This document shows, one piece after another, positions 2,099-28,093 of a stretch of DNA of 64,000 bases. This DNA is from an uncultured Actinomycetes bacterium. Lineage in GTDB: Bacteria; Actinomycetota; Thermoleophilia; Gaiellales; Gaiellaceae. How positions within the stretch are numbered: position 1 is the stretch's first letter; every line of letters begins with the position of its first letter. The stretch spans positions 14,514 through 78,513 of the forward strand of contig CAWFKM010000021.1 of assembly GCA_963816455.1 (NCBI GenBank), given 5' to 3'. Under the pieces are notes generated by a model. It made no database searches. It saw only the letters and a list, made by a program, of their open reading frames with translations, and was not told the origin of the DNA. Both the position numbers and the translations under genes were made by a program.

Positions 2099-2099
2099 G

Positions 2100-8653: not shown

Positions 8654-8672
8654 GCGTGACAGTGTGCCTTCC

Positions 8673-9314
8673 ATGTCTGTCGGGGCCGTCGCCGTGGTGT
8701 CGTGCCATCTGGAGCAGCCGCTCCACGATGCGGCGTGGCAGCGGTTCGACGCGCTCCAGCGGAGCCGGCCCGGCGGCTTCGACATCGTGGCCCTGATCCG
8801 CCCGCCGGACGCAGCGCACCGCGAGGCGGAGGAGCCGTGGCTCGACCGAGCGCGGGCCGCTGCGGCGCGCGCGCCGCTCGGGCTCCACACGCACTGGACG
8901 AGCCCGACGCACGCGAGGCCGACCGGCGGCGACCCCGCGGCGCGCGTCCGCGAGGAGACCGCGTGGCTGCGCGAGCGCGGGCTCGAGCCGCAGTTCTTCT
9001 GCGGCGGCGCGTGGTACACCGACGACGCGGTCGAGGCCGCGGTGCGCGAGCTCGGCCTCGTCGACTGCACGCCGCGCGGCGGCACGCCGTCACCGGGAAT
9101 CCTGCCGACGACACACTCACTCGGGCAGCTCGCGCGCGCCGTGCTGCGGCCGCTGCCGCCGTACGTGCACGCGTACTTCCACGACTACGACCTGCTCGAC
9201 GCGAAGCGTCGCACGGCGCTCGTCGCGTCGCTACGCCTGCTCGGTCGGCGCGCTTCCCCCGCCGACCCGCTTGCGCTCGCGAATGCGCCGGACGATGTCG
9301 ACGAGCGCGGCTGA
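8673..9314 (+). CDS. Hypothetical protein
   Basis: ORF 8652..9314. MSVGAVAVVSCHLEQPLHDAAWQRFDALQRSRPGGFDIVALIRPPD..LGLHTHWTSPTHARP..FFCGGAWYTDD. Composition is protein-like. I prefer the ATG at 8673, because the ATG at 8652 interlocks with the asnB-like ATG. The 3' end overlaps convergent gene 9231..10520 by about 80 nt and may be shorter. Confidence 0.5.
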   Translation: MSVGAVAVVSCHLEQPLHDAAWQRFDALQRSRPGGFDIVALIRPPDAAHREAEEPWLDRARAAAARAPLGLHTHWTSPTHARPTGGDPAARVREETAWLRERGLEPQFFCGGAWYTDDAVEAAVRELGLVDCTPRGGTPSPGILPTTHSLGQLARAVLRPLPPYVHAYFHDYDLLDAKRRTALVASLRLLGRRASPADPLALANAPDDVDERG

Positions 9315-10585: not shown

Positions 10586-12118
10586 GTGGCGACCAAGCCT
10601 GTAGTCGGGCGCGCCGACCCGGACGTCGACGGCGCCGGTGACGCCGCCCCGCCCGGACCTCCGCAACACGCCGCGGACATCCGCTCGGTGCGCCTGGTGC
10701 CGTCGCTCGGCCAGCTCCGCGGATTCGCGCGACGCGCCCTCAGCATCGCCGCGCTCATCGTCGTCGACCTGTCCGGGCTTGCCGGCTCGCTGTATCTCGC
10801 GCTTGTCCTGCGCGAGCTCTACTACGGTGAGCGGCCGATCCTCTGGGGGCTGCCGTGGGACGCGGAGCAGAAGTGGCTGCCGTTCCTCGTGCTCGTCACG
10901 GTGCTCGTGTTCTGGCGCGCCGGCCTCTACGCACCGCGCGAGCAGCGCGGCGGCGCCGGGCGCGTCGTGTCGTCGCTTCTGCTTGTGATGGTGATCACGC
11001 TCGCGTTCGCGGTCGGCACCGGCTACCAGCACACGACGTTCGGGCTCTACGTCACGGCGTTCGTGCTCGCGGCGATCGTGATCTCGCTGCTCCGCTCCAG
11101 CTACGAGGTCGTGACGAGCGACGTCTGGCGCGTCGCAGGCGCGCGTCGCCGCGCGGTGCTCGTCGGCGAGGGCGAGCGGCTCGCCGCTCTCCGCCGCGTG
11201 CTCGGACAGGCCCGCGGCGGGATCGACTACGAGTTCGTCGGCGTCCTCTCGTCGGACGGCGAGGTCGCCGGACTGCCGGTGCTCGGCACGCTCTCCGACC
11301 TGCAGACCGTGCTTCAGGAGCAGCCGCTCGACGAGTTGATCGTGAGCGGCGTCGACCTCCGCGAGGACCAGCTGCTCGACCTCGTCGAGGAGGCGCACCG
11401 CTACGGCGTCAAGGTGCGGCTCGCGCCGACGACGGCCGAGCTGCTGCGGCAGCGCGCGGAGTACGTCGCCGGCCAGGGCGTCCCGCTCTTCGAGCTGCGG
11501 CCGCCGGTCGTCGCCGGGCTCGACTGGGCGGTGAAGCGTGCGTTCGACATCGTCGTCAGCGCACTGCTGATCGTGATCGCGTCGCCGGTGTGGGCGGTGA
11601 TCGCGATCTGGGTGAAGCTCGACTCGCCGGGGCCGGTGTTCTACCGCGACCGCCGCATCGGGCTCGCCGAGCGCGAGTTCGGGATGTTCAAGTTCCGCTC
11701 GATGTACACCGACGCCGCGGCGCGCCAGGCCGGGCTCGAGACGTCGAACGAGGCATCGGGGCCGCTGTTCAAGATCAAGGACGACCCGCGCGTCACGAAG
11801 GTCGGCAGGATCCTCCGCCGCTATTCGATCGACGAGATGCCGCAGGTGCTGAACGTGCTGCGCGGCGAGATGTCGCTCGTCGGCCCGCGGCCGCTGCCGC
11901 TGCGTGACTACGTGCAGCTCGAGGACTGGCACCGCAAGCGCTACCTCGTACTGCCCGGGATGACGGGGCTGTGGCAGGTGTCGGGCCGGATCGACCTCAG
12001 CTTCGACGACCTCGTGCGCCTCGACTTCTACTATCTGGAGAACTGGTCGATCTGGCTCGACATCTCGATCCTCGCGAAGACGCTTCCCGCCGTGCTCGCG
12101 CGGAGAGGAGCGTACTGA
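10586..12118 (+). CDS. Polyprenyl-phosphate hexose-1-phosphate transferase (WbaP/EpsL-type bacterial sugar transferase with N-terminal TM + CoA_binding_3 module); intact
   Basis: 510-aa ORF. C-terminal catalytic block: DSPGPVFYRDRRIGLAEREFGMFKFRSMYTDAA..GPLFKIKDDPRVTKVGRILRRYSIDEMPQVLNVLRGEMSLVGPRPLP. Confidence 0.9.
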   Translation: MATKPVVGRADPDVDGAGDAAPPGPPQHAADIRSVRLVPSLGQLRGFARRALSIAALIVVDLSGLAGSLYLALVLRELYYGERPILWGLPWDAEQKWLPFLVLVTVLVFWRAGLYAPREQRGGAGRVVSSLLLVMVITLAFAVGTGYQHTTFGLYVTAFVLAAIVISLLRSSYEVVTSDVWRVAGARRRAVLVGEGERLAALRRVLGQARGGIDYEFVGVLSSDGEVAGLPVLGTLSDLQTVLQEQPLDELIVSGVDLREDQLLDLVEEAHRYGVKVRLAPTTAELLRQRAEYVAGQGVPLFELRPPVVAGLDWAVKRAFDIVVSALLIVIASPVWAVIAIWVKLDSPGPVFYRDRRIGLAEREFGMFKFRSMYTDAAARQAGLETSNEASGPLFKIKDDPRVTKVGRILRRYSIDEMPQVLNVLRGEMSLVGPRPLPLRDYVQLEDWHRKRYLVLPGMTGLWQVSGRIDLSFDDLVRLDFYYLENWSIWLDISILAKTLPAVLARRGAY

Positions 12119-13373: not shown

Positions 13374-14597
13374 ATGGGCGCGATGAAGGCGCCCAAGATC
13401 CTCGCCGTCGCCTCGGCGGTCGATCTCGACTTCCGCTACGGCTGCACGCCCGCGTGGTGGCAGCTCTGGAAGGGGATGGCCGAGGCCGGCATCGACCTGA
13501 TCGTGACGCCGTACCGCGGGCGCCCGGTCGAGTCGCCGTGGTGGCGGACCGCGCCGAATCCGATGTACCGCGAGGCGGAGGCATTCGCCGCCGCGCGTGA
13601 CACCGTGGCGCGGCTGAAGGGCGACCGCTACCTGCGGCGCGCGGAGTCGCATCCGGAGGACGGGCGCGCCGACAAGGTCGTGCGCGAGGTGATCTGGCGG
13701 ACAGTCACGCCGCGCTGGCGCCGCCACATCGAGTCGATCCTCGAGCGCGAGGGCGACGTCGACGCGATCGTCGTGTTCACCGTGCCGATGAGTCACTTCC
13801 GCGGCATTCCGACAGCGCTGCGCGAGCGCTTCGACGTGCCGGTCATCTTCTACGACGGCGACGTGCCGATGAGCCTGCCCGAGTTCGGCGGCATGGACAC
13901 CGGCTTCAACTACTACCACGGCGCCGACCCGTCGGAGTACGACCTCGTGCTCTCGAACTCGGAGGGCGGCATCCCGCGGCTGCTCGAGCTCGGCGCGCGC
14001 CGCGCGGAGGCGCTCTTCTGGGCGATCGACCCCGAGCTGTTCGCGCCGCAACCGGTCGAGAAAAGTGCCGACGTCTTCTTCTACGGCTACGGCGACAAGT
14101 TCCGCCGAGAGTGGACGCGCGACCTCGTCGGCGAGCCGAGCCGCCGCCTGCCGGACGTCGACTTCGCGCTCGGCGGCCGTGACTTCCGCGGCGACACCGG
14201 CGCGGCACGGCTGCTCGGCGACGTGCCGTACAACGTCTTCCCGCGCGCGATCTCGGCGGCGCGCGTGAATCTCAACGTGACGCGCCGCTCGCACGCGTCG
14301 GTGTCGGCGTCGTCGACCGTGCGGCCGTTCGAGCTCGCTGGGTGCGGCGCGGCGATCGTCTCGAACCCGGTCGAGGGAATGGACCGTTTCTTCGAGCCCG
14401 GCCGCGAGCTGCTCGTCGTCGCCGACGCGGACGAGGCGACGGCGGCGTACCGCGAGCTGCTCGCCGATCCCGCGCAGGCGGAGGAGCTCGGCCGCCGCGC
14501 ACGCGAGCGCGTCCTCGACGAGCACACGTACGCGCACCGCGCTCGCCGCCTGCTCGAGCTGCTCGACCTCGGCGTTCCGGAGACCGCGCGTGTCTGA
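13374..14597 (+). CDS. CgeB-like / DUF3880-type glycosyltransferase; intact
   Basis: ORF 12147..14597 frame, from the ATG at 13374 (or 13383). MKAPKILAVASAVDLDFRYGCTPAWWQLWKGM..IFYDGDVPMSLPEFGG..VFFYGYGDKFRREW..VNLNVTRRSHASVSASSTVRPFELAGCGAAIVSNP. Confidence 0.65.
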   Translation: MGAMKAPKILAVASAVDLDFRYGCTPAWWQLWKGMAEAGIDLIVTPYRGRPVESPWWRTAPNPMYREAEAFAAARDTVARLKGDRYLRRAESHPEDGRADKVVREVIWRTVTPRWRRHIESILEREGDVDAIVVFTVPMSHFRGIPTALRERFDVPVIFYDGDVPMSLPEFGGMDTGFNYYHGADPSEYDLVLSNSEGGIPRLLELGARRAEALFWAIDPELFAPQPVEKSADVFFYGYGDKFRREWTRDLVGEPSRRLPDVDFALGGRDFRGDTGAARLLGDVPYNVFPRAISAARVNLNVTRRSHASVSASSTVRPFELAGCGAAIVSNPVEGMDRFFEPGRELLVVADADEATAAYRELLADPAQAEELGRRARERVLDEHTYAHRARRLLELLDLGVPETARV

Positions 14598-15340
14598 CCC
14601 GGTCGCGCTCGGCGCAGCTGCGCCGTGTCGCGATCGTCCCCGCGCTGAACGAAGAGCACACCGTGCCGCGCGTGATCGACGAGCTGCGCGCATTCGATCC
14701 CGGCCTCGACATCGTCGTGATCGACGACGGCTCGAGCGACCGCACGGCGGAAGTCGCGGCCGCGAAAGGCGCGCACGTGCTCCGGCTCCCGTTCAACCTC
14801 GGCATCGGCGGCTCCGTGCAGACCGGCTTCCGCTACGCGTACGAGAACGGCTACGAGCTCGCGGTGCGCGTCGACGGCGACGGCCAGCACGATCCCGCGC
14901 AGCTCGGCAAGGTCGTCGAGCCGGTGCTCCGCGACGAGGCCGACATCGTCGTCGGCTCCCGCTTCGCCGCGCAGGACGGCGACGGCTACAAGTCGTCGCG
15001 CACGCGCCGCATCGGCATCCGCATCCTCGCAAGCGTCGTCTCGCGGATCGTCGGCCGGCGCATCACCGACCCGACGTCGGGCTTCCAGGCGCTGAACCGC
15101 CGCGGGATCACGCTGTTCGCGCGCGACTACCCGCACGACTATCCGGAGGTCGAGGCGGCGGTGATGGTGCACCGCCACAAGCTGCGCCTGTGCGAGGTTC
15201 CGGTGACGATGCGCGAGCGCGGCGGCGGCAAGTCGTCGATCACCGCGCTCGGCTCGATCTACTACATGGTGAAGGTGCTGCTCGCGCTGTTCGTCGGCCT
15301 CTTCCGCCGCAACGTCGTCCCGCAGGAGGATCTGCAATGA
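14594..15340 (+). CDS. GT2-family glycosyltransferase (DPM1/Ppm1/GtrB-like polyprenyl-phosphate sugar synthase type)
   Basis: ORF 14342..15340 frame. VAIVPALNEEHTVPRVIDEL..VVIDDGSSDRT..VRVDGDGQHDP..SGFQALNRR. The only in-frame candidate start is the CTG at 14594 overlapping the upstream TGA (CTGA). The alternative is the GTG at 14590 plus a frame break near 14612. Confidence 0.8.
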   Translation: MTRSRSAQLRRVAIVPALNEEHTVPRVIDELRAFDPGLDIVVIDDGSSDRTAEVAAAKGAHVLRLPFNLGIGGSVQTGFRYAYENGYELAVRVDGDGQHDPAQLGKVVEPVLRDEADIVVGSRFAAQDGDGYKSSRTRRIGIRILASVVSRIVGRRITDPTSGFQALNRRGITLFARDYPHDYPEVEAAVMVHRHKLRLCEVPVTMRERGGGKSSITALGSIYYMVKVLLALFVGLFRRNVVPQEDLQ

Positions 15341-15689
15341 CTCCGCTCACCGTCTCGATCGCCGGCGCGATCGCGTCGTTCGCTCTCGTTCTCGTCGTGC
15401 TCGAGCTGATCCGCAGCCGGCGGCTGCGCGAGCGCTACGCGCTGCTGTGGCTCGTCACCGGGATCGTGCTCTGCGCGCTCTCGGCGTGGCGCGCCGGCCT
15501 GAACACGATCGCCGGCTGGGTCGGCGTGCGCAGCTACCCGCCCGCGGTGCTGTTCGCCGTCGGGTTCCTGTTCGTCCTCGCCGTGCTGCTGCACTACTCG
15601 ACGGTGATCTCGCGGCTCTCGGATCAGAACACCGTGCTCGCGCAGCGGCTCGCGCTGCTCGAGCAGGAGCTCAGGGAGCCGCGTCGTAG
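15337..15689 (+). CDS. DUF2304-like small membrane protein (usual partner of the preceding GT2 type)
   Basis: The ATG at 15337 overlaps the GT2 stop (ATGA). MTPLTVSIAGAIASFALVLVVLELIRSRRLRERYALLWLVTGIVLCAL..YPPAVLFAVGFLFVLAVLLHYSTVISRLSDQNTVLAQRLALLEQELR. As sequenced there is no stop until 16491. One extra G at 15674-15676 gives a stop at 15687-15689. Confidence 0.65.
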
Positions 15690-16611
15690 TCTCGCCGTGC
15701 TCGACCGTCTCGGCGACGAAGTAGAGCGGCCGCTGCTTCGTCTCCTCGAAGATGCGCGCGATGTACTGGCCGACGATGCCGATCCCGAGCATCTGCATGC
15801 CGCCGAGCAGGAGTATGACGGCGAGCAGCGACGTCCAGCCCTGCGGCGCGTTGTCGGTGAAGAACCGGACGTAGAGCGTCCACGCGAGCACGCCGAGGCA
15901 GAACACGAGCATCACGGCGCCGAGGCGCGTCACGAGCCGGATCGGCGCGATCGAGAACGACGTGATCCCGTCCGAGGCGAGCCGCATCAGCTTTCCGAGC
16001 GGATACTTGGACTTCCCGGCGAAGCGCGCGTCGCGCCGGTAGCCGACGCCGGTCTGGCTGTAGCCGATCCAGCTCGTCATGCCGCGGAGATAGCGCGCGC
16101 GCTCCGGCATCCGCGCGAGCGCGTCGACGGCGCGGCGCGACAGCAGGCGGAAGTCGCCGGTGTTCGCGGGGATGTCGGTTGCGGTCATCCGGCGGAAGGC
16201 CTTGTAGTACGCCGAGATCGCGAGCAGCCGCAGGCGCGACTCTCCCTCGCGCTGCTCGCGCACCGCGTAGACGACGTCGAAGCCCTCCTGCCAGCGCGCG
16301 ACGAGCTCGGGGATCACCTCCGGCGGGTCCTGGAGGTCGCCGTCGATGAGCACGACCGCGTCGCCGCGCGCGGCGTCGAGCCCGGCGGTGAGCGCGACCT
16401 GGTGGCCGAAGTTCCGCGAGAGGCGCAGCAGGCGGATCCGCTCGTCGGCGGCCGCGAGCTCGCGGAGCGCGTCCCAGGAGCCGTCGGATGAGCCGTCGTC
16501 GACGAGCACGAGCTCGTACGGGCCGAGCGGCGCGAGCGCGGCGGTCAGCCGCCGGACGAGCTCCGCGACGGACTCGCGCTCGTTGTAGATCGGGGAGACG
16601 ACGCTCAGCAC
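15671..16611 (-). CDS. GT2-family glycosyltransferase (ArnC/GtrB/DPM1-like, with C-terminal TM helices)
   Basis: ORF 15262..16611. MLSVVSPIYNERESVAELV..LVDDGSSDGS..LSRNFGHQVALTAGL..VLIDGDLQDPPEVIPEL..GDFRLLSRR..AVILLLGGMQMLGIGIVGQYIARIFEETKQRPLYFVAE. The natural stop is missing as sequenced. The same one-base repair gives TGA at 15671-15673. Confidence 0.8.
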
Positions 16612-16621
16612 GGTGTCAACT

Positions 16622-17713
16622 CTAGAACGGAACCGCGTCCGCGAACAGGACGTACGCGGAAAGCGCGATCGCCGCGACCGCGGCGAGCTCGTCCTCCTCG
16701 ACCGCCGCGAGCGCCAGCGGCCAGAGCGCGTACCAGGGCCGGAGCAGGCTCGACGTGAGGCACAGCGCCGTCGCGGCGAGCGAGAGCCGGGCGCGGCCGG
16801 TCCGCCAGGCGAGCCGGAGAAGGACGACGTAGATCGCGACGAACACGAGCCCGGCGAGAGCGACGGCGTAGCGGTGGCGCAGGCCGAGCTGCGAGAGCCA
16901 GTGCACGCCGCCGAGCGGCGACGTCTGGTGCGCTCCCGCCGTCGCGCCGGAGATCCAGTGCAGGCCGAACGCGGCCGTTGCGACGACGATGATCGCGAGC
17001 GCGGCGCCGGCGAGCCCGAGCCACCAGCGCCGCGGCGCGCGGAACCGCCGCGCCGTGAGCTCCAGCGGCAGCAGGATCGCCGCGACCGGCTTGAACGCGC
17101 CGGAGATGCTCCACGCCGCGCCTCCCGCCGCGGCCGCCGGCGTCGCGACCGCGAACACGAGCAGCGCCGTCATCCACGCGTCGTTGTGCCCGCCGCCCGC
17201 GAAATGCAGTGCGACGAGCGGGCTCCAGCCGAGCAGCGCGACCGCCGCGGGGTTGCGCGTGCGCCGGGCGACGATGAGGACGGCCGCGAGGATCCCGAGC
17301 ACGGCGAAGATGCGATACGCGAGCTCGGCGCGCTTCGCGGAGGTGCCGGCGACGGCGGCCGGGATCGTCCCGAGCGCCGCCCACGCGGGGCCGTACTGCT
17401 CCGTTTCCGTCAGCCAGATCTCGGAGACGCTGTCGTGCGCAGGATCGTTCGGATACGTGTCCGGCGTCGCGCGGTACGGGTTCGCGTGGTGGACGATCAT
17501 GATCCGCGCCTGCGACCAGTAGAGGTAGACGTCCTTCGAGAGCAGCAGCGGCGCCGCGAGCGCGATCGCCTGGACGACGACGGCGACGATGAGCGCGGCG
17601 CGGAGTGAGAACGCGCCGCCGCGCGCGAGGTAGGCGCCGACGACGTAGAGGACGAACGCCGCGACGACTCCCCAGGTCCAGAACGCGTGCCACGGCTCGC
17701 CCGCGGGCGACAC
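16622..17713 (-). CDS. GT-C-like integral membrane protein (GT87/DUF2029-like mannosyltransferase type)
   Basis: 363-aa ORF with about 10 hydrophobic spans. HHANPYRATPDTYPNDPAHD..EQYGPAWAAL..LLGWSPLVALHFAGGGHNDAWM. The frame stays open upstream to about 17801 and encodes a further TM helix (TALVPAGLLVALALAVIGA) with no recognisable start, so the true 5' end is probably upstream. Confidence 0.6.
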   Translation of the reverse strand: MSPAGEPWHAFWTWGVVAAFVLYVVGAYLARGGAFSLRAALIVAVVVQAIALAAPLLLSKDVYLYWSQARIMIVHHANPYRATPDTYPNDPAHDSVSEIWLTETEQYGPAWAALGTIPAAVAGTSAKRAELAYRIFAVLGILAAVLIVARRTRNPAAVALLGWSPLVALHFAGGGHNDAWMTALLVFAVATPAAAAGGAAWSISGAFKPVAAILLPLELTARRFRAPRRWWLGLAGAALAIIVVATAAFGLHWISGATAGAHQTSPLGGVHWLSQLGLRHRYAVALAGLVFVAIYVVLLRLAWRTGRARLSLAATALCLTSSLLRPWYALWPLALAAVEEDELAAVAAIALSAYVLFADAVPF

Positions 17714-17801
17714 GGGAGAGGACGCCGACGGGGACGCGTGCCGCGCGCCGATGACGGCGAGCGCGAGCGCGACCAGGAGGCCGGCCGGGACGAGGGCGGT
17801 T

Positions 17802-19275
17802 CTAGCCCTTGCGGTCGAGATAGATATCGACGTATCCCGGCTGGAGTTGGTAGTGGAGCCGGCGCGCGTACCGCGCGCGGATCCCGGACACGATCGCTGG
17901 CTTCGTCTGGAACATCCGGCCGATGATGACGGCCGTCGGCTTCGTCCGGTCGATCAGCCGGAGCACACCGGCCGGCGGCAGGTCCTCGTCCGCGATCCGC
18001 GCGATCGACGTGTCGATCAGCTGGCCCGGCATCTGCCGGCGCGCGAAGTACGGGACGATCGGCAGGTCGGAGACGACGAGCTGTCCCGGCTGTCGTGTGC
18101 GTTTGCAGCTGCCGCACAGCCCACGCGATCTCCGGCGGCTCGTGCGCCGACGCCGCGACCATCTCGTTGCGCTGCTTGACGATGCCGGCGATCGCAAATG
18201 CCGCGACGGCGGCGGCGAGTGCGATTCCGGCGGGACGCCGCAGCCCGAGCTCCGCGACGAGCAGCCCGAGGCCGACGCCTGCGGGGAGCGCGATCGAGAC
18301 GGCGAGGAAGACCATGTGGTGGTCGTTGAGCGGATGCATCACCAGGACGAAGGCGTACCCGCCGACGATCCAGAGCCACAGTGCCGCGAGCAGCCGCCGC
18401 TCGCGTCCGCGTACTGCGAGGATGATCGACGCGATCGCGCCGGCGATGAAGAGACACCCCGACGGCGTGCGCGGGTCGACGAATGTCGCCGCGCGGTGCA
18501 CGTTCGACGTCGCGGTGTGCGAGCCGAGGATCCGCGCATGCGTGACGAAGACGCCGTGCCAGATCTGCGGCAGCGCGTTGCGATACGCGATGACGATCAA
18601 CGCGATGACGGCGGCGAAGCCGGCCGGCGGCCACAGGAGCCGGCGTGCGAGCGGCCCCGTTCCGCAGAGAAGGGCGAGCGCCGCGATCGGCAGCGCCGCC
18701 GTCAGCCCCGGCAGCTTCACCGAGGTCGCGGCGGCGAGGACGACTCCGGAGCCGAACGCGGCCCACGCGCGGAACCGGCCGCGATAGGCGATGACGGCGA
18801 GCGCGACGGCGACCACCGCGAGCGCCGCGGATGCAGGCTCCGACTCGACGGTCGCCGCGAACCCCGGCAGCGGCCGCGCGACGGCCATCACCGCGGCGGC
18901 GACGATCCCGGCGACCGGGCCGCCGGCGATCCGGCCGCAGACGTACGCGGCGACGACCGCGGCGAGCGTGACGACCGCGAGCCCGGTCCGAACGCCGGTG
19001 AGCGAGTTGCCGAAGGGATACGAGACGGCGACGAGGAGCACGTACCAGCCGGGCGGCTGGTCGAGGAACACGTCCTTCCCGAGCGCCTGGCCGTGGCGCA
19101 GCGCGTCGAGGCTCCCGAGGTAGTTCCCCTCGTCGAAGTTCGGATACGAGTGGACGTCGCGCGTCCAGAGGTAGAGCGCCGCCGCAAGGACGAGTGCCAG
19201 CGCGCCCGCTTCCGCGACGAGCGACGCCGGCAGCGCGCGCGCGCCGCGGTGCCCGGCGGCGACCGGCGTGCTCAC
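17802..19275 (-). CDS. GT-C-like (GT39/GT83-like) integral membrane glycosyltransferase; one frame break near 18090
   Basis: The GTG at 19275 overlaps the upstream stop (GTGA). [66 protein letters not shown].. (ORF 17497..19872 frame). The C-terminus is [41 protein letters not shown] (ORF 17802..18197). Confidence 0.7.
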
Positions 19276-20264
19276 GAGCTCCGGAGCTCCGCCGGCGGCT
19301 GCGGCTGCTGTCGCGGCAGCGTCACGCCGTCGAAGCCGTGGAGCTCGCGCACGAGGTACAGCGGGCGCGCCTTCACCTCGTCGTAGATGCGGCCGACGTA
19401 CTCGCCCACGACGCCGATCACGATCAGCTGGATCCCGCCGATGAACGACGTGACGAGAACGATCGTCAGCCAGCCGGGGACGAGAAACGCGCCGAAGAAC
19501 TTGGAGAGGAGCGTCGCGAGCCCGAACAGGAAGGCGAGGAGTGAGACGACGAAGCCGATGTCGAGCACGATTCGGAGCGGCTTCGTCGAGAAGCTGAGCA
19601 GACCGTCCGTCGCGAGGCGCACCATTCGCCGCACGGTGTACTTCGAGCTCCCGGCGTGACGCGGTGGCACCTCGTACGAGACGCCGATCTGGCGGAAGCC
19701 GAGCCACGCGAACATGCCGCGGACGAAGCGGTTCTGCTCCGGCATCGAGCGGAACGCGTCGATCACGCGCCGGTCGGCGAGCCGGAAGTCGCCGGACGCG
19801 GCGGGGATGTCGACGGTCGCGAGGCGCCGCAGCAGGCGGTAGTACATGCGCGCGGTCGTGCGCTTGAACCATCCCTCCGGCCGCGCGGCCATCACGCCGT
19901 AGACGACCTCGTAGCCGTCGCGCCAGCGCGCCGCGAGCTCCGGGATCAACTCCGGCGGATGCTGGAGATCGCCGTCCATCACGATCACGGCGTCGCCGCG
20001 CGCGAGGTCGATCCCGGCGGTGATCGCGAGCTGATGTCCGAAGTTGCGGGCGAGCTGCGCGACCTTGAAGCGTGGATCGCTCTTGTTCATCTCGACGAGC
20101 ATCAGGTAGCCGAGGTCGGTGCTGCCGTCGTCGACGAAGATCGCCTCGGCGTGACCGTCGAGGCCGGCGAACACCGCGGTCAGGCGGCGTTGAAGCTCCG
20201 GCAGGGACTCCTGCTCGTTGTAGATCGGGATGACGACGGAGTAGGTGGGGGCAGAAGTGCTCAC
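19272..20264 (-). CDS. GT2-family glycosyltransferase (ArnC/GtrB/DPM1-like); intact
   Basis: Lies within the ORF 19272..22895 frame, from the GTG at 20264. [97 protein letters not shown]. Confidence 0.85.
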
Positions 20265-20266
20265 CG

Positions 20267-21962
20267 TCAGGGCACGCGGACTGTAACGGGCGGCCCGATC
20301 GAGAACACGTCGCCCTGGAGCGGATCGTTCAGCCAGTTCGCCTGCAACGCCAGTCGGTATGTCCACGTGCCCTTGCCCGGCCGGTCGACCCAGCCGCGGC
20401 CGGGGTGATTGCCGACGTCGTCCATCGTCAGCGAGCAGTTGTCGCTCGCGTGCGCGACCGGAACGCAGACGGCGCCGCCGTTCGGCGCGCCGCTGCGCCA
20501 GATCCGGTAGATGACCTTCGCCGCGGACGGCTGCTTCGGGTTCCAGCGCAGGAGCACGCTGCGTCCGACCTGCGTCGCCGACAGCTGCAGCGCCGGGTCG
20601 ACCGGGCGAATCAGGATGTCGGACTCGTAGGCCCGAGGGTTCGGCCCGTGCAACGGATGCGCGGCCGCGATCACGACGAGCGGCGACAGCGCGAAGACGA
20701 CGATCGCCGCGCCGAGCAGCCCGAGACGCGTGCGCCGGCTCAACGCGGTGCGCACCGTCGGCGGGCTCGGCCACCGGCCCTTCTTGCCGCGCGGCCAGAG
20801 GTAGACGAGCGACGCGAGCAGGATCAGGAACGCGGGAAACGACGGCATCATGATCCGGAGGAAGCTGCCGCCGAGGATGCCTGCCTGCGCGTACGTTCCC
20901 TTCGTCACGACGAAGGCGCCGAACCAGCCGCCGACCACGAGCGCGGCGGTGAACGACCGCTTGGCGAGCCCGATGAGCCCGGCGAGGACGAGCCACTCGA
21001 TCACGCGCATGCTCCAGAAGTGCTCCTTGATGCCGAGCAGGTTGTTGTTCAGCTGGCCCCAGTTGAACGACACGTAGTGATGGAGCGGGTTGAACGCGAC
21101 GAGCCCGCTCCCCGCGCCGAGTGCGAGCCGCCGCGTCTCCTCCGAGTTGAAGAGCGGAAGGTCTCCGAGACTTCGGTACTTCCAGAGTGCGAGCGTGACG
21201 ACTGCGGGCGCGAGGCCGGCCGCCATGTACGCGGCGCCGAGAAACCGCCGTCGCCACGCGAGCGCAAGAATCGGACCGAGGAGGAAGACCGAGTTCGACG
21301 GCTTGATCGCGATCGCCATGCCCGCGGCGAGCCCGGCCGCGACCGCGTCGATCCAGTCCATCCGGTCGAGGACGCGGAACGTGAAGTAGACCGCGACGAG
21401 CACGCCGACCGTCGACGGGAAGTCCGCCATCGCGGTCAGGCCGTACGACTGCGGCAGCGTCACCTCGGTGTAGATCTGGTGGTAGCCGAGGTCGGTGTAC
21501 TTGATGCCGATCAGCGGCACGACGATCCAGCACAACGTCGCCCAGTACCCGAACACGCGGCCGCCGATCCGGTCGGCGATTCCGTAGATGCAGAGAAGCG
21601 CGACCGGCGCGAGCACGAGGACGTTGAACAGGACGATCGCGGGCAGCGCCGGCACGAGCGTCGGCCCGCCGATCCAGCTCATCGGAATGTCGAGGTACGC
21701 AAGGCCCGGACCGACGACGCCCGCGCGGCAGCGTTCCGTGGCCGAGCAGCCAGCCGCTGCCGTAGTACCAGAGCTGGTCGCCGCCCTGGTAGAAGAGCCA
21801 GCCGTTGTGGCGCACGTCGAGCGCGAGGCCGAGCGTGACGAGCCACTGCACCGCGATCGCGGGCGCGAGCAGCACGACCGGGCGCACGTTCGTGAGCCAG
21901 GCGTGGACGCGCGGCAGCGTCCCCCACGCACGGCGGCCGGCGTCGTACGCGACGCTGGTCAC
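20267..21962 (-). CDS. Large polytopic membrane protein (GT-C-like) with a C-terminal beta-rich extracytoplasmic domain; one frame break near 21720
   Basis: The GTG at 21962 overlaps the fcl stop (GTGA). [59 protein letters not shown] (ORF 19272..22895 frame). It continues as [48 protein letters not shown].. and the tail ..[32 protein letters not shown] (ORF 20267..21931). Confidence 0.6.
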
Positions 21963-22895
21963 GTCGAGGCGGTTCCCGCCGGCTGGTGGCTGCGATACCA
22001 GGCGATCGTCCGCTCGAGACCTTCGCGCAACGACGTGTGCGCGCGGAAGCCGAAGAGCTCCTCGGCGCGGGAGACGTCGAGCTGGCGGCGCGGCTGGCCG
22101 TTCGGCTTCGTCGCGTCCCAGACGATCGTCGCCGTCGAAGCCGGTCAGCTCGCCGATCAGCTCGGCGAGGTCGCGGATCGCGATCTCGGCGCCGGTGCCG
22201 AGGTTCACGGGCTCCGGCCCGTCGTACCGCTGCGCCGCGAGCTGGATCGCCTCGGCGCAGTCGTCGACGTAGAGGAACTCGCGCGTCGGCGAGCCGTCGC
22301 CCCAGAGCACGATCTCGCGCTCGCCGCGCTCCTGCGCGTCGACCATCTTGCGGATCAGCGCGGGGATCACGTGCGACGTCTCGAGATCGAAGTTGTCGCG
22401 CGGGCCGTAGAGGTTGACCGGCAGCAGGTAGACGGTCTCGAGCTCGTACTGCTCGCGGTAGCCCTGCGCCCCGACGAGCAGCGCCTTCTTCGCGACGCCG
22501 TACGGCGCGTTCGTCTCCTCCGGATAGCCGTTCCAGAGGTCCTCCTCGCGGAACGGGATCGGCGCGAACTTCGGATAGGCGCAGATCGTTCCGATCAGGA
22601 CGACCTTGCGCGTCGCCTGCACGCGGCTCTGCTCGAGCACGTGCGCGCCCATCATCAGGTTCGCGTACCAGTAGCGGCCCGGGTTCGCGCGGTTCGCGCC
22701 GATGCCGCCGACCTCGGCGGCGAGATGGATCACGAGCTCCGGCCGGACCTCGGCGAACAGCCGCTCGACGTCGGTGGCGACCGTCAGGTCGTAGTCGCGC
22801 CGCCGCGGCACGAACGGGTCGAGACCGTCCGCGCGGAGCCGCTCGACCAGATGCGAGCCCAGGAAGCCCGCTCCACCCGTGACCAGGACACGCAC
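21959..22895 (-). CDS. fcl: GDP-L-fucose synthase (GDP-4-keto-6-deoxy-D-mannose 3,5-epimerase/4-reductase); one extra base near 22125
   Basis: [106 protein letters not shown]. After ELTGFDG the peptide continues one base out of frame as [48 protein letters not shown] to TGA 21959-21961. Confidence 0.85.
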
Positions 22896-22942
22896 CGGCC
22901 AAGGGTATCGCGGGACCGTTACGGAACCGTGAGCGTCCGGCT

Positions 22943-24448
22943 GTGTCTGCTTTGATCGGGGGCGTGGAAGCCGCCAGCCCCCCGCAGCGCCGGAGCGCCG
23001 TCCGCAGCGGCCTCCTCACCGGGTTCGCCCAGGTCGTCATCGCGTTCGCCGCGGCCGGCGCGGGAGCGCTGCTCGCGCACAAGTTCGGGCGCACCGCGGA
23101 GACCGACGGCTTCCTCGGCGCGTACGCGGTGTACATCGTCCTCGTCTTCGCGGCGCAGTCGTTCCGGATGGTCGTCGTGCCGGACCTGACGCGGGCGCGG
23201 GAGCTCGGCACGCTCGGCGGCGAGACCCGTGCGTTCGGGGTCGCGATCCTGACGCTCGCGGTTCCCGTGTCCCTGCTCGTCGCGCTGCTCGCGACGCAGC
23301 TCGGCGACCTCTTGACGGGGAAGCTGCCGCCGGTGGCGGCGCACGTCGCGGCGCGCGCGCTCGTCGTTCTCGTGCCCGCCGCGTTCGTGCAGCTGCTGGC
23401 GGCGCTCGGCGCCGGCGCGCTCGCTGCGCTCGACAGCTACGGCACCGCCGCGGCGGGATTCGCGCTCGGCGGGATCTCCGGGTTGATCGTGTTCGCCGCG
23501 CTCGCGGACCAGCACGGCGTCGTCGCGCTCGCGTGGGGTCTCGGCGTCAACGCGACGATCGCGCTGACCGTGCCGGTCGTGTCGCTGATGCGGCGGGGAG
23601 CGCTCGGCGGTCCGTGGCCGGAACGGCTGGAGATCGGGCCGCGGCTGCGGCATCTCGTGCAGGGCGCGGCGGTTCCCGTCGCGTTGTCGGGCTGCTACCT
23701 GTTGGCGCTGCGGCTCGCCGCGTACCTCGGAGTCGGCCGCGTCTCGAGCTTCTCGTACGCGTATCTCGCCGCGTCGACGATCGTCGGTGCGACGGCGTTC
23801 TCGCTCGGGCTGATCTCGTCGGCGCCGCTGACGCGGCGCGGCATCGACCCGGTCGCGGCGGGCCGCCACATCGTCGATGCGGCGTGGATCAGCCTCGTTC
23901 TCGCCGGTCCGGTCGCCGGAATCGTCGCGCTCGTCGGCGGCCGGATCATGGGCGTGCTCCTCGGCAGCGCGTACGGCGGCGGCGTCGGGCAGGAGCTCGG
24001 GCATCTCGTCGTCTACCTCGCGCTCTGGATGCTCGCGTGGGTCTGCTTCGCGGTGACGTTCCCGCTCGTGTTCGTCGCGGAGAAGCGCTGGACGCTCGTG
24101 CCGCTCGCGATCATCGGCTTCGTCATCTGCATTCCGGTCGGGCTCGGGCTGCGCACGCTGTGGGGGCTCCAGGGTCTCGCGATTGCGCTCGGCGTCGCGG
24201 CGTCCGTGATCGCCGCCGGGCTGATCTGGACGATCTCGATGCAGACGCTGAAGATCGCCGCGGCCGGGCTCGGACGGCTCGTCGTCGTGATCGGCGGCGC
24301 GACGTTGCTGGCGTTCGGCGGCGCCTCACTGCTGCTGCAGCCGATCCCGGCGGCCGTGGTCGGCGCAGTCGTCTACGCGGGCGTGATCTACGCGCTGCGC
24401 TCGCTCGGGCTGCGCGAGGCGTGGGCGTACGTGCGGGGGCTGAATTGA
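22943..24448 (+). CDS. MurJ/MviN/Wzx-like (MOP superfamily) lipid-linked glycan flippase; intact
   Basis: 501-aa ORF with about 12-14 hydrophobic spans. [35 protein letters not shown]. It is divergent from fcl and coupled to gmd. Confidence 0.7.
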
Positions 24449-25425
24449 GCGCGCCGCGCGCGATCGTCACCGGAATCGCGGGCCAGGACGGCTCGTATCT
24501 CGCGGAGCAGTTGCTCGACCGCGGCTACGACGTCGTCGGGATCGTCCGCACCGCGCCGGGCGACGCGTACCCGAATCTCGAGGCCGTGCGCGACCGGATC
24601 GAGCTCGTCCAGGCGAACCTGCTCGACCGTGATGCACTTGTCGCCGTGCTCACCGAGCACGCGCCGCGCGAGGTCTACAACTTCGCGTCGCCGTCGTTCG
24701 TGCCGATCTCGTGGGAGCAGCCGGTCGTGACCGCGGAGTTCGCGGCGGTCGGCGTCACGTCGCTGCTCGAGGCGGTGCGCGCGGTCGACTCCGGCATCCG
24801 GATCTACCAGGCGTCGTCGAGCGAGATCTTCGGCGAACCGTCGGAGGTGCCGCAGACCGAAGCGACGCCGCTCTCGCCCGTCACGCCGTACGGCGTCGCG
24901 AAGGCGTACGGGCACTTCATCATCCGCTCGTACCGCCGCCGCTACGGGCTCCACGCGAGCTGCGGGATCCTCTACAACCACGAGTCGCCGCGGCGCCCGG
25001 TGAACTTTCTCCCGAGCAAGGTCGCGCATGCGGCCGCGGCGATCTCGCTCGGGCTCGAGGAGGAGCTGCTGCTCGGCGATCTCACCGCGCAGCGCGACTG
25101 GGGCTATGCCGGCGACTACGTCGACGCGATGTGGCGGATGCTCCAGCAGGACGAGGCCGAGGACTACGTGATCGCGACGGGCTCGCTCCACTCGGTGCAG
25201 GAGCTCGTCGAGCTGGCGTTCGCGCACGTCGGCCTCGACTGGCGGGCCCACGTCCGGGTCGACCCCTCGCTGCTACGAGGCCAGGCCGAGCTCCACCATC
25301 TCGTCGGCGACGCCTCCCGCGCGCGCGACCGGCTCGACTGGGAGCCCCAGGTCGGCTTCGAAGAGCTCGTGGCGCTGCTGGTCGACGCGGCCCGCGAGCG
25401 GCTCCTTCCGCTCACGAGTTCGTAA
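24445..25425 (+). CDS. gmd: GDP-mannose 4,6-dehydratase; intact
   Basis: The TTG at 24445 overlaps the flippase stop (TTGA), in the ORF 23533..25425 frame. AIVTGIAGQDGSYLAEQLLDRGYDVVGIVR..VYNFASPSFVPISWEQP..IYQASSSEIFG..SPVTPYGVAKAYGHFIIRSYRRRYGLHASCGILYNHESPRR..RDWGYAGDYVDAMWRMLQ. Confidence 0.9.
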   Translation: MSAPRAIVTGIAGQDGSYLAEQLLDRGYDVVGIVRTAPGDAYPNLEAVRDRIELVQANLLDRDALVAVLTEHAPREVYNFASPSFVPISWEQPVVTAEFAAVGVTSLLEAVRAVDSGIRIYQASSSEIFGEPSEVPQTEATPLSPVTPYGVAKAYGHFIIRSYRRRYGLHASCGILYNHESPRRPVNFLPSKVAHAAAAISLGLEEELLLGDLTAQRDWGYAGDYVDAMWRMLQQDEAEDYVIATGSLHSVQELVELAFAHVGLDWRAHVRVDPSLLRGQAELHHLVGDASRARDRLDWEPQVGFEELVALLVDAARERLLPLTSS

Positions 25426-25451
25426 CACCGCCTCTTTACAATCCCGGCGAA

Positions 25452-25766
25452 ATGTCTGAGCAGCAGGAGCTTTCGGTCGACGAGGTCTACGCGCGCCTGC
25501 GGGAGGCGGTCGACCGGGACTCCCGCGACCTCGCCGCGACCCGCGGGCTCGCCGAGCGGTTCTGGCCCGTCAGCGCCGACGTTCCGCTCGAGCGGCGGCC
25601 CGGCCCGAAGGGCTGGCTCGCGTTCCAGGTGAAGCGCGTCCTGCGGAAGTCGATGCGGTGGTACGTCGAGCCCGCGTTCGCCGAGCAGCGGATCGTCAAC
25701 GACGCGCTGCTCCGGCTCGTCGACGACCTTACGCGCCGCGTCGACGAGCTCGAGAGCAGAAAGTGA
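25452..25766 (+). CDS. Hypothetical small protein (104 aa; helical or coiled-coil look)
   Basis: The ATG at 25452 is in the ORF 24711..25766 frame. MSEQQELSVDEVYARLREAV..RPGPKGWLAFQVKRVLRKSMRWYVEPAFAEQRIVNDALLRLVDDLTRRVDELESRK. Its stop overlaps the next GTG (GTGA). Confidence 0.5.
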   Translation: MSEQQELSVDEVYARLREAVDRDSRDLAATRGLAERFWPVSADVPLERRPGPKGWLAFQVKRVLRKSMRWYVEPAFAEQRIVNDALLRLVDDLTRRVDELESRK

Positions 25767-26797
25767 GACTGGCGGTCTGCATTCCGCAGGTGCCGTTCGA
25801 GCGCGGCGGCGCCGAGATCTTCGCGGACGACCTCGTCGCGCAGCTGCGCGCGCGCGACCACGAGGCGGAGCTCGTCACCGTGCCGTTCAAGTGGTATCCC
25901 GGCGAGCGCGTGCTGACGCAGGCGTTCCTCTGGCGGCTGCTCGATCTCGAGGAGGCGAACGGGCGGCCGGTGGACGCGGTGATCGCGACGAAGTTCCCGT
26001 CGTACGCGATTCGCCATCCGCGGAAGGTCGTCTGGCTCGTGCACCAGTTCCGGCAGGCGTGGGACTTCGACCGAACCGAGCTCGGACAGTTCTCGGAGTC
26101 GGCGGAGGACCGCGCGCTGCGGCGTCGCATCCTCGCGTTCGAGCGGACGGCGTTGTCGGAGGCGCGCGCGATCTTCGCGACGTCCAACAACGTCGCCGGG
26201 AGGCTGCGCGGCTCGACCGGGCTCGAGGCGGAGATCATGCCGCACCCGCCCGCGCCGCTCGCGTATCGCTGCGACGGCTACGACGACTTCGTGTTGTCCG
26301 TGGGTCGGCTCGACCGAACGAAGCGCGTCGACCTGCTGCTCGAGGCGGCGGCAGCCGAGCCCGGGCTGCGCGTCGTGATCGCCGGCGACGGGCCGGAGCG
26401 CGAGCGGCTCGAGCGGCTCGCGCGCGACCGCGGGCTCAACGGGCGCGCCGAGTTCGCCGGCCGCGTCTCCGACGAGCAGCTCGCCGATCTCTACGCGCGC
26501 TGTCTCGGCGTCTACTACGCGCCCGTCGACGAGGACTTCGGGATGGTTCCGTTCGAGGCGTTCCTCTCCGAGAAGCCGGTGCTCACGACGACCGACGCCG
26601 GCGGTCCGCTCGACATCGTCCACGACCGCGAGACCGGACTCGTCGTCGCGCCGAGCGCCGAGGACGTCGCGCGCGGCTGCGCGTGGCTGCGCGGGCACAC
26701 GGACGAGGCGCGCACGTTCGGCCGCGCGGGGCGCGAGCTTGCGAGCGGCGTCACGTGGGATTCCTGCATCGACCGGTTGCTCGCCGCCGTCGCCTGA
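25763..26797 (+). CDS. GT4-family glycosyltransferase; intact
   Basis: GTG at 25763 in ORF 25658..26797. VRLAVCIPQVPFERGGAEIFADDLVAQLRARDHE..VLSVGRLDRTKRVDLLLEAA..VIAGDGPERERLE..YYAPVDEDFGMVPFEAFLSEKPVLTTTDAGGPLDIVHDRETGLVV. Confidence 0.85.
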   Translation: MRLAVCIPQVPFERGGAEIFADDLVAQLRARDHEAELVTVPFKWYPGERVLTQAFLWRLLDLEEANGRPVDAVIATKFPSYAIRHPRKVVWLVHQFRQAWDFDRTELGQFSESAEDRALRRRILAFERTALSEARAIFATSNNVAGRLRGSTGLEAEIMPHPPAPLAYRCDGYDDFVLSVGRLDRTKRVDLLLEAAAAEPGLRVVIAGDGPERERLERLARDRGLNGRAEFAGRVSDEQLADLYARCLGVYYAPVDEDFGMVPFEAFLSEKPVLTTTDAGGPLDIVHDRETGLVVAPSAEDVARGCAWLRGHTDEARTFGRAGRELASGVTWDSCIDRLLAAVA

Positions 26798-26798
26798 C

Positions 26799-28093
26799 GT
26801 GAAGGTCGCGTACTTTTCACCGCTGCCGCCGGATACGTCCGGCATCGCCGACTACTCGGCGCTGCTCCTGCCCGCGCTCGAGCAGCTCGTCGAGGTCGAG
26901 GTCGTGCGCCCGGGTCGCACGCGGCCGGTCGGCGGCGCAGACGTCTCGCTCTACCACATCGGCAACAACCCGGACGCGCACGCGTGGATCGTCGACGCGC
27001 TGCGACGGCAGCCGGGAGTCGTCGTCCTGCACGACTGGGTGATCCACCATCTCGTCGCGGGAATGACGATCGGGCGGAAGGACGGTCACGCGTATCTCGC
27101 GGCGATGGAGCGCGAGGCCGGCGTGCCCGGACGGCTGCTCGGCTACGGCGTCCTCGAGGGACGGCTGCCGCCGCTCTGGGAGGTGCGGCCGGAGGAGTTC
27201 CCGCTCGCCGGCGAGGTGCTCGACCGCGCGACGGGGCTCATCGTCCACTCGCACTACGTCGAAGACCACGCGCGCGAGCACGGCTACGACGGGCCGCTCT
27301 GGCGGATCCCGCATCCGGCGTGGCCGGCGCCCGCGGTCGAGGCGGCGGCGGTCGACGGCGCGCCGCTGATCGGCTGCTTCGGGCATCTGAACGAGAGCAA
27401 GCGCGTGCCGCAGCTGCTGCGCGCGTTCGCAGAGCTGCGGCGCGCGCATCCCGGCGCGCGGCTGCTGCTCGTCGGCTCGGAGGCGCCCGGTTTCGACCTC
27501 GCGGGACGGCTGGAGCGGATCGGGCTCGACGCGGACGGCGTGATCCGCGAGGGCTACGTGGAGGAGGCTCGGCTCTGGTCGCTGATGGCGGCGTGCGACG
27601 CGTGCGTGCTGCTTCGCGCGCCGACGATGGGGGAGACGTCGGGCAGCGCGATCCGGACGCTCTCGCTCGGCAAGCCGCTCGTCGTCAGCGACGTCGGCTG
27701 GTTCGCGGAGCTGCCGGACGACGTCGCGCTGAAGGTTCCCGTCGGCGGCGAACGAGGAGGTCGACGCGCTCGCGGCGGCGCTCGGCGACGCTCGCCGATC
27801 CCGCCGTCGCGGCGCGCATGGGCGAGGCCGCGCGCGCGTACGTCGAGCGGGAGAACGACCTCGGGCGCGTCGCCGGCCTCTACGCCGCCGCGCTGGAGGA
27901 GGCCGCCGGCGACGCGTTCGTCCGCGAGGGCGTGCTCCGCGAGGTCGCCGCGGCCGCCGCGGACACCGGCGTCGAACCGGAGCTGCTGGCGCCGGAGCTG
28001 CGCGCGGCCGCGCTCGTCTCGCCGGACGGACGTGCCCCTGCGGGCCACGTCCCGGTGCCTGGCACCGGGACCCGGCTCCTGCGGTCCTGGCCG
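26799..28093 (+). CDS. GT4-family glycosyltransferase; one frame break near 27740; no stop before the next gene
   Basis: GTG at 26799 (ORF 26739 frame). VKVAYFSPLPPDTSGIADYSALLLPAL..LYHIGNNPDAHAWIVDAL..VVLHDWVIHHL..IGCFGHLNESKRVPQLLRAF..VLLRAPTMGETSGSAIRTLSLGKPLVVSDVGWF. It continues in the ORF 26984 frame (LADPAVAARMGEAARAYVERENDLGRVAGLYAAALE..). All three frames are stop-free from about 27960 to 28094, so the 3' end is undefined. Confidence 0.7.
28049..28071. repeat. Palindromic repeat, copy 3 (core GGTGCCTGGCACC)
   Basis: GTCCCGGTGCC-T-GGCACCGGGAC, a perfect 11+11 palindrome about 20 nt upstream of the ATG at 28094. Confidence 0.85.

Follow-up and report, generated by a model that had tools for sequence, protein, structure and literature searches.

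We studied a stretch of 64,000 nucleotides from an uncultured member of the Gaiellaceae (contig CAWFKM010000021.1, positions 14,514 to 78,513 of the forward strand; hereafter the window), and in particular its genes between 13.3 and 25.4 kb, which the original prediction, made from the letters alone, had described as an operon led by fcl in which GT-C membrane enzymes alternate with polyprenyl-phosphate glycosyltransferases of family GT2. Our results make it probable that this region is the variable centre of an order-wide cell-envelope glycan locus with extracytoplasmic glycosylation by synthase/GT-C pairs. The window has a G+C content of 72% and raw lists of open reading frames (ORFs) are therefore crowded with spurious frames. 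Coding frames were called from the third-position GC (GC3) in sliding windows together with a seven-state frame-segmentation model, the latter used in place of a plain ORF filter by GC3 that was dropped because it missed frameshifted genes. The coding pattern consists of g4, GT2c and a DUF2304 gene on the plus strand, then GT2a, a GT87-like gene, GTC2, GT2b, GTC1 and fcl on the minus strand, and finally a flippase gene and gmd on the plus strand. All these genes stand at their predicted positions and, as judged from the coding signal and from synteny in 79 species, they are real genes and not chance ORFs. Direct inspection of the sequence likewise confirmed the four predicted overlaps, namely the GTGA shared by the fcl stop and the GTC1 start (21959-21962), the GTGA between GT2b and GTC2 (19272-19275), the ATGA between GT2c and DUF2304 (15337-15340) and the TTGA between the flippase stop and gmd (24445-24448). 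The spacing between GTC1 and GT2b is 2 nucleotides (nt) and that between the GT87-like gene and GT2a is 10 nt; a single six-gene operon running from GT2a to fcl on the minus strand is plausible.

To compare the region among relatives, we mapped all window proteins by tblastn onto 79 species-level Gaiellales loci. The whole locus of ~20 kb is syntenic across them, in the order GT4 genes, GT4/GT-C fusion, GT4a, (small protein), (gmd) and flippase; (dehydratase), fcl and GTC1; DUF2304, GT2c, (g4) and Bac_transf; and a PMT_2 protein. Its conserved core is made of the flippase, the dehydratase-fcl-GTC1 group and the DUF2304-GT2c-g4 group. A convergent DUF2304 gene follows GTC1 in 65/65 evaluable loci, and a convergent GT2c lies downstream of GTC1 in 59/59, with the DUF2304-GT2c pair kept. 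On the other side of GTC1, fcl lies next upstream on the same strand in 63 of 68 cases (58 within 400 bp, and five as the next match in noisier contigs), and five loci (L007, L027, L041, L056 and L064) have no local fcl. The block GT2b-GTC2-GT87-GT2a is found only in the clade of the window. At the same site, L012, L013, L020, L074 and L077 carry the GT87 and GT2a genes alone, L009 and L086 carry a GT2 and PMT_2 pair alone, and other loci have nothing there. The alternating array is, then, composed of a conserved core pair to which two accessory cassettes of two genes each, placed between GTC1 and DUF2304, have been added.

These comparisons changed the predicted array in one respect and upheld it in another. 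As one unit led by fcl it did not stand: the coupling of fcl to GTC1 is real, the conserved GT2 partner of GTC1 is the convergent GT2c with its DUF2304 gene, and the linkage of fcl in related genomes extends to GTC1 and to the core GT2c and not to the GtrB-type GT2a and GT2b, which are lacking in most loci with fcl. The pairing of three polyprenyl-phosphate GT2 genes with GT-C neighbours was, on the other hand, borne out, and the pairs behave as evolutionary units. Because the cassettes are gained and lost as pairs, which is the best evidence we have on this point, each synthase would serve the GT-C enzyme adjacent to it. GTC1 is the fastest-evolving gene of the locus, being only 50% identical in L006 compared with 84-89% for fcl, the flippase, gmd, GT2c and g4, and such divergence suits an enzyme that decorates a variable surface structure. 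One further locus, L082, seemed to contain a second module (g4', GT2c', DUF2304', GTC1' and fcl') that could have counted as independent evidence for the pairing with fcl. We rejected it as a foldback artefact, given that, at the end of this long-read contig, positions 1-5196 are an inverted copy of 5228-10483 (85% identity, 175 gaps).

The two accessory synthases, GT2a (15671..16611, minus strand) and GT2b (19272..20264, minus strand), are by sequence GtrB-type polyprenyl-phosphate glycosyltransferases, as had been predicted for them. In phmmer searches GT2a matched the Synechocystis GtrB structure (PDB 5EKP) at 4e-85, with residues 2-301 aligned onto chain positions 28-328 of 341, and GT2b matched it at 2.4e-87, with residues 7-316 onto positions 27-337 of 341. 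The identity to GtrB is 43% for GT2a and 44% for GT2b, and both proteins show its architecture of a glycosyltransferase domain, a juxtamembrane region and two C-terminal membrane helices. The product of GtrB is undecaprenyl-phosphate-glucose, formed from UDP-glucose, and the roles of its residues D94, D96 and D157, with R122 and R200 as key residues of the active site, have been described (PMC4728340). When aligned with GtrB, both GT2a and GT2b keep the DXD motif (D94, D96) and the putative catalytic acid D157; GT2a keeps R122 and R200 as well, and GT2b keeps R200 and has a Met at R122, with an Arg three residues downstream. Among PDB entries GtrB ranked best for both, ArnC came next at ~1e-52 (4e-54 for GT2b), and the archaeal dolichyl-phosphate mannose synthases (DPMS) followed far behind at ~1e-17 to 1e-20. 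The best NCBIfam models were PgfS (261-268 bits; 1e-77 for GT2a) and ArnC (193 bits; 7.5e-57 for GT2a), all of them under cut-offs of 500-529, and for this reason no equivalog can be assigned. Being 43-44% identical to an enzyme of UDP-glucose and far from the DPMS that use GDP-mannose, GT2a and GT2b are poor candidates for an enzyme of GDP-fucose.

The core synthase GT2c (14594..15340, plus strand; PF00535 at 1e-26) belongs to a different branch, that of the short DPM1/PpgS/AglJ-type polyprenyl-phosphate glycosyltransferases. Its best NCBIfam matches are PpgS (NF058614, 1e-29) and AglJ (1.5e-28), with nearly equal scores and both far under the equivalog cut-offs; with 104 bits against the PpgS cut-off of 370, GT2c is a related enzyme and not a PpgS orthologue. 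The nearest solved structure is the DPMS 5MLZ (2.6e-11). GT2c has one C-terminal membrane helix and is shorter than GT2a and GT2b, and the placement of its start codon is uncertain; on sequence similarity we describe it as PpgS/AglJ/DPMS-like. The overlapping downstream gene (15337..15690, plus strand) encodes a small membrane protein of the GacJ/Rv3632-like DUF2304 family (PF10066 at 1e-20, 74 bits against a cut-off of 25.5). Upstream, g4 (13374..14597, plus strand) encodes a cytoplasmic glycosyltransferase (Glyco_trans_1_2, PF13524 at 8e-36) and is the first gene of the convergent g4-GT2c-DUF2304 operon. A g4 orthologue aligned over 13374-14588, and the gene is found in most Gaiellales loci.

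The three membrane proteins of the minus strand are all GT-C-like, in agreement with the prediction, GTC1 by its predicted fold. GTC1 (20267..21962) is a 564-residue protein of an unclassified family that matched no Pfam or NCBIfam family at E <= 0.01; sub-threshold PMT_2 matches were found in 18 of 35 members of its family, the best at 2.6e-5. Its AlphaFold model (pLDDT 84, pTM 0.87) is predicted to be a polytopic GT-C fold with a C-terminal FN3-like domain. When the membrane part was compared with the PDB by Foldseek, only GT-C enzymes were recovered (ArnT, AglB, STT3, PglB, EmbA/B/C, ALG9 and Pmt), and the twenty best matches were all of this kind, with TM-scores of 0.29-0.42 and E-values of 3e-4 and weaker. 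FN3-type domains matched the last ~120 residues. The motif GGDQLW is invariant in 35 aligned GTC1 sequences, and its D62, just past the first membrane helix, would be the catalytic acid, since in the topology we infer it sits where GT-C enzymes carry theirs. Homologues of GTC1 are confined to metagenome-assembled genomes of Gaiellaceae, Gaiellales and Thermoleophilia, and a pattern-based scan of genomes recovered none from a cultured strain. STT3-type oligosaccharyltransferases are characterized by a WWDxG motif; GTC1 lacks it and its C-terminal domain is just an FN3-like sandwich of ~120 residues, and we rejected an assignment to that type. GTC1 could represent an unclassified GT-C family open to direct characterization.

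GTC2 (17802..19275, minus strand) is an ArnT/PMT_2-like GT-C membrane protein. The window copy matched PMT_2 (PF13231) at 9e-5, with 23.2 bits against a cut-off of 26.1, and many of its homologues (35-80% identity) are annotated with PF13231, under the JGI name 'ArnT-like'. The GT87-like protein (16622..17713, minus strand) gave no match in the Pfam scan and matched TIGR03459 at 2.5e-14 (53 bits, far under the cut-off of 439); PF26314 is recorded on its orthologues and on a 99%-identical product of L001, a public contig (ENA ERZ25039551) that is 94.5% identical to window positions 10289-31572. Judging by these family matches, it appears to be an MptA/MptB-family GT-C protein. Sequence searches of the PDB with GTC2, a GTC2 profile and the GT87-like protein gave no useful match.

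At the other end of the minus-strand group, fcl (21959..22895) encodes a 3,5-epimerase/4-reductase similar to GDP-L-fucose synthase; NF047922 is its best match by far (3e-89, 299 bits against an equivalog cut-off of 500), and its nearest solved structures are all GDP-L-fucose synthases (3.5e-64). For gmd (24445..25425, plus strand), encoding a GDP-mannose 4,6-dehydratase, the best match by far is TIGR01472 (6e-97, 325 bits against an equivalog cut-off of 415). The predicted identities of both genes therefore held as best matches, under the NCBIfam thresholds for equivalogs in each case. Divergent from fcl lies the gene of a polytopic MOP/MurJ-like flippase (22943..24448, plus strand), with no Pfam match and a TIGR01695 match at 2e-11 (43 bits, far under the cut-off of 235), kept at the same position in nearly all loci.

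The sugar-nucleotide genes next to the flippase differ among loci. Most other Gaiellales have a LegB/RmlB-like 4,6-dehydratase gene directly upstream of fcl and no Gmd there (L025:7972-8973, L047:7972-8949, L086:1289-2437 and ~30 other loci); the clade of the window has the canonical Gmd beside the flippase. Fcl is ~70-75% identical between the two locus types, and the pattern looks like a non-orthologous replacement of the dehydratase. Loci devoid of fcl keep a Gmd-like gene, 56-62% identical and encoding 295-303 amino acids (aa), as seen in L002:6884-8436, L003:6928-8456, L041, L056 and L064; in L002 and L003 it is followed by an S-adenosylmethionine-dependent methyltransferase gene. This arrangement suggests a different 6-deoxyhexose derivative in those species.

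The genes described above are embedded in a wider set of glycan genes. A priming polyprenyl glycosylphosphotransferase of the Bac_transf family (10586..12118, plus strand; PF02397 at 3e-65 and TIGR03025 at 387 bits, above its cut-off) is syntenic in related loci, and the window also encodes many GT4 enzymes, two more PMT_2 proteins, an AsnB-like amidotransferase, a WecA-like protein and an ABC-2 permease. These additional envelope genes border the region at 5805-10520 and 37052-40841: the second and third PMT_2 proteins are encoded to either side of the AsnB-like amidotransferase, and the WecA/MraY-family transferase and the ABC-2 permease are further members of the set. The glycan locus may therefore extend over ~1-41 kb of the window. 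A gene for a protein of ~100 aa without a Pfam match (25451-25756, plus strand) separates gmd from the first GT4 gene and was detected by tblastn in ~10 related loci. Further downstream lies a fusion of a cytoplasmic GT4 domain with a PMT_2-type GT-C membrane domain (26792..30150, plus strand, ~1,110 aa), recognized by Pfam matches on separate pieces. The fusion is conserved across the Gaiellales, with intact orthologues of 1,103-1,119 aa (L002:2193-5510, L003:2243-5554 and L004:1787-5146), and it is unusual in that it joins a nucleotide-sugar-dependent and a lipid-sugar-dependent glycosyltransferase in one chain. A literature search on the Gaiellales cell wall gave nothing relevant on envelope chemistry.

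Several of these genes are interrupted in the window. The predicted ORF map was right as to gene order and junctions and wrong as to intactness, since fcl, GTC1, GTC2 and the ends of GT2a and DUF2304 are broken by small insertions or deletions. Intact orthologues from L004 aligned to the window in two frames, with the switch near 22126 for fcl, near 21715-21720 for GTC1 and near 18089 for GTC2; the L004 orthologue of the fusion aligned as three pieces over two reading frames (sites 27745-27790 and 29214), and at least two frameshifts interrupt this gene. Both GTC1 and GTC2 have full-length homologues, of 564 aa (82% identical) and 490 aa (92% identical), respectively. The GT2a stop at 15671 is out of frame with the body of the gene, and the DUF2304 frame has lost its own stop and stays open to 16491. 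Both defects trace to a 4-bp difference at 15683 relative to L001, in which four extra bases give normal ends to GT2a (314 aa) and DUF2304 (118 aa). A canonical start codon that takes in the first membrane helix is missing from the GT87-like ORF, and the coding signal runs to ~17806. Its frame is open and coding-like as far as the GTC2 stop (17713-17956, minus strand), with no ATG, GTG or TTG and a CTG at 17776; in orthologues, an ATG start overlaps the GTC2 stop. Either a sequence error may have removed the start codon from the window, or translation may begin at a non-canonical codon. As a separate observation, the 3' ends of the convergent GT2a and DUF2304 genes overlap by 23-44 nt in the four related loci examined (L001:15994-16016, L002:16223-16266, L003:16322-16353 and L004:16373-16401; the window counterpart is 15671-15700), and such an overlap could couple their expression.

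Considering these data together, we propose the following model, in which the donor sugars, the acceptors and the substrate of the flippase are inferred. The Bac_transf phosphoglycosyl transferase would start a lipid-pyrophosphate-linked glycan that cytoplasmic GT4-type enzymes lengthen before its export. Outside the membrane, GT-C enzymes supplied with polyprenyl-monophosphate sugars would then glycosylate that glycan or another envelope acceptor. In the core pair, GT2c, aided by the DUF2304 protein, would make a polyprenyl-phosphate sugar on the cytoplasmic face, the MOP-type flippase may bring this lipid to the other side of the membrane, and GTC1 would transfer the sugar, its C-terminal FN3-like domain probably helping to hold the acceptor. 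In the accessory pairs, GT2b would make the donor for GTC2, and GT2a the donor for the MptA/B-like GT-C enzyme, so that these lineage-specific cassettes would add further decorations. Gmd and Fcl would supply GDP-L-fucose or a close 6-deoxyhexose, the likeliest consumer of which would be the cytoplasmic g4 or a GT4 enzyme.

Some of our results weigh against this model. The system is known here from its genes and from predicted structure. The fold matches of GTC1 are modest (TM-score 0.35-0.42, E ~3e-4) and reach no curated family threshold, and the window copies of GTC2 and the GT87-like protein also fall under the curated cut-offs. Frameshifts affect three of the six minus-strand genes of the window, and the frameshift of fcl is common to the independent contig L001. 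No GtrA-type flippase was found among the parts of the window that were scanned against Pfam, and the weakly MurJ-like MOP protein may export the main lipid-linked glycan instead. Lastly, the conserved dehydratase-fcl-GTC1 operon could equally indicate that the product of Fcl feeds the GT2c/GTC1 route.

The interrupted genes raise the possibility that the cluster is decaying here, with the frameshifts in fcl, GTC1, GTC2 and the fusion being real mutations and the operon consisting largely of pseudogenes. There are at least five frame switches within 21 kb of otherwise conserved genes, and in L001 the publicly annotated GTC1 product is truncated, at 471 aa. The frameshift in fcl (GACGATCGTC), one surplus base directly before GATC, is the same in the window and in L001 (22120-22130), as would result from base-calling that errs systematically at a methylated motif or from a true mutation of this lineage. 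However, systematic nanopore errors are plausible in a GATC context, and L001 is no clean reference. It shows 241 gap openings against the window in 21 kb, many of them within ORFs that are intact in the window, and we therefore regard it as an error-rich long-read assembly of a close relative. Moreover, the extra G at 21720 and that at 18090 are both absent from L001, GC3 stays above 0.9 on either side of every frame switch, with no sign of relaxed constraint, and the switches are spread across the whole window. Where checked, same-strand frame switches in conserved genes occur about every 3-4 kb, and many others are indicated at 46-53 kb by the segmentation model. A long-read metagenome assembly with imperfect polishing is the probable source of the window, assembly error is very likely the cause of the frameshifts, and decay of the cluster seems to us highly improbable. 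Alternatively, the GT-C enzymes might act on targets unrelated to the glycan, glycosylating proteins in the manner of PMT-like O-glycosylation, or lipoglycans as MptA/B do, and share just regulation or ancestry with their neighbours. PMT_2, which is matched by GTC2, g1 and the fusion protein, takes its name from protein O-mannosyltransferases; MptA and MptB, whose family the GT87-like protein matches, are lipomannan mannosyltransferases; and oligosaccharyltransferases are among the fold matches of GTC1. PMT_2 nevertheless also covers ArnT-like lipid and glycan transferases, GTC1 has no WWDxG in its sequence, and the genes overlap within a polysaccharide-type locus (priming transferase, GT4 enzymes, flippase) that is syntenic across the order, all of which leaves a protein or lipoglycan target rather unlikely.

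A different question is whether fucose itself could travel on the lipid, as the original prediction had put forward. A linkage of fcl that is not conserved would have counted against it, and we observed strong conservation. Refocused on the core pair, the idea is that GT2c with DUF2304 would make polyprenyl-phosphate-L-fucose, or another 6-deoxyhexose derived from Gmd/Fcl, from GDP-fucose, the MOP protein would flip it and GTC1 would add the fucose outside. The position of fcl upstream of GTC1 is consistent with this route: the two genes overlap in the window, L004 and L006, a dehydratase-fcl-GTC1 operon is present in most Gaiellales, and the dehydratase and fcl are the only sugar-nucleotide genes of the conserved core. 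GT2c also falls in the DPM1/DPMS-like branch, which includes a GDP-sugar enzyme, and the flippase belongs to the core too, so that all the parts resembling the streptococcal GacI/J/K/L system adjoin fcl. Against it, the whole ~20 kb is syntenic, and gene adjacency therefore discriminates little as to which enzyme uses GDP-fucose. The five loci without a local fcl retain GTC1 and DUF2304, as well as GT2c wherever the flank extends far enough, and their GT2c and GTC1 are no more diverged than in the related L013, which has fcl. Neither of the best family matches of GT2c, PpgS and AglJ, is a fucose enzyme, GDP-fucose could be a direct substrate of g4 and of several GT4 enzymes, and one literature search for polyprenyl-phosphate-fucose listed no paper with the words 'phosphate fucose'. 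We also looked for a sequence signature of GDP versus UDP use in the DPMS contacts and ruled it out, because the base is recognized by main-chain atoms and a generally conserved Asp; sequence consequently cannot separate GDP from UDP donors. On balance we consider fucose on the lipid unlikely, and retain the model in which the product of Fcl is most probably consumed in the cytoplasm. The accompanying premise, that no polyprenyl-phosphate 6-deoxyhexose had been described as a GT-C donor, overlooks decaprenyl-phosphate-rhamnose, which was reportedly proposed as the donor of RptA by Birch and colleagues in 2009. With RptA in mind, such a donor would not be without precedent.

For the Gaiellales, actinobacteria that abound in soil and of which hardly any have been cultured, our analysis adds an order-wide envelope-glycan locus of ~20 kb in which a fixed core contrasts with a variable site where synthase/GT-C cassettes are swapped. 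Should the core pair carry fucose on the lipid, it would represent a new type of donor for extracytoplasmic glycosylation and, to our knowledge, the first fucosyl-phosphate-polyprenol donor and the first GT-C fucosyltransferase, with GTC1 as the founding member of a GT-C family restricted to the Gaiellales; otherwise, the locus is a further example of a known mechanism.

Indeed, Shigella, streptococci and mycobacteria already provide examples of this class of mechanism (synthase, flippase and GT-C enzyme). Among described systems, GacI/J/K/L of Streptococcus pyogenes comes closest. It adds the N-acetylglucosamine side chain of the group A carbohydrate; the DUF2304 protein GacJ binds GacI and stimulates it, the product is used by the GT-C enzyme GacL, and the flippase GacK is of the Wzx type (bioRxiv 10.1101/180810). 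The Gaiellales core shares with it a GT2 synthase, an adjoining DUF2304 gene, a polytopic GT-C-like protein and a putative Wzx/MOP-type flippase, as well as the setting in a cell-wall polysaccharide locus with a WecA-like initiator and an ABC-2 exporter nearby. It differs in that GTC1 shows no detectable relationship to any named GT-C family, in the deep-branching actinobacterial host, in the presence of a dehydratase and fcl in the core operon and in the insertion of extra synthase/GT-C cassettes. A second parallel is the PpgS (Rv3631)/Rv3632/Rv3779 system of Mycobacterium tuberculosis, which places galactosamine on arabinogalactan and in which Rv3632 stimulates PpgS (bioRxiv 10.1101/180810). 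PpgS is the best NCBIfam match of GT2c and is co-transcribed with a DUF2304 partner gene, as GT2c would be, and the GT-C enzyme there uses a lipid-linked sugar, as proposed here; at 104 bits against 370, however, GT2c is no orthologue, and GTC1 is set beside Rv3779 by description only.

The accessory cassettes resemble instead the GtrA/GtrB/Gtr* systems of O-antigen glucosylation and ArnC/ArnT, given that GT2a and GT2b are full-length GtrB homologues that each adjoin a GT-C gene and that synthase and GT-C gene are gained and lost together. Unlike the Gtr systems, the cassettes hold no gene for a GtrA-family flippase, and GT2b has Met in place of R122 of GtrB. The GT-C enzyme RptA of Corynebacterium glutamicum is the nearest precedent for fucose on a lipid donor, in that it attaches a 6-deoxyhexose, rhamnose, to the cell-wall polysaccharide arabinogalactan (PMC3123699). 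That sugar comes from dTDP-rhamnose and not from GDP-fucose, and the likeness is by description only. Finally, the three-component pentofuranose systems combine a polyprenyl phosphoribose synthase, a MATE flippase and a GT136 GT-C enzyme with a C-terminal carbohydrate-binding module (PMC11127046). In contrast to them, the synthase here is a GT2 enzyme that would act on a nucleotide sugar and not on phosphoribosyl pyrophosphate, with no sign of pentofuranose chemistry, yet the scheme proposed here follows the same logic of a synthase, a MOP-superfamily flippase and a GT-C enzyme, and the C-terminal domain of the GT136 enzymes is comparable to the FN3-like domain of GTC1.

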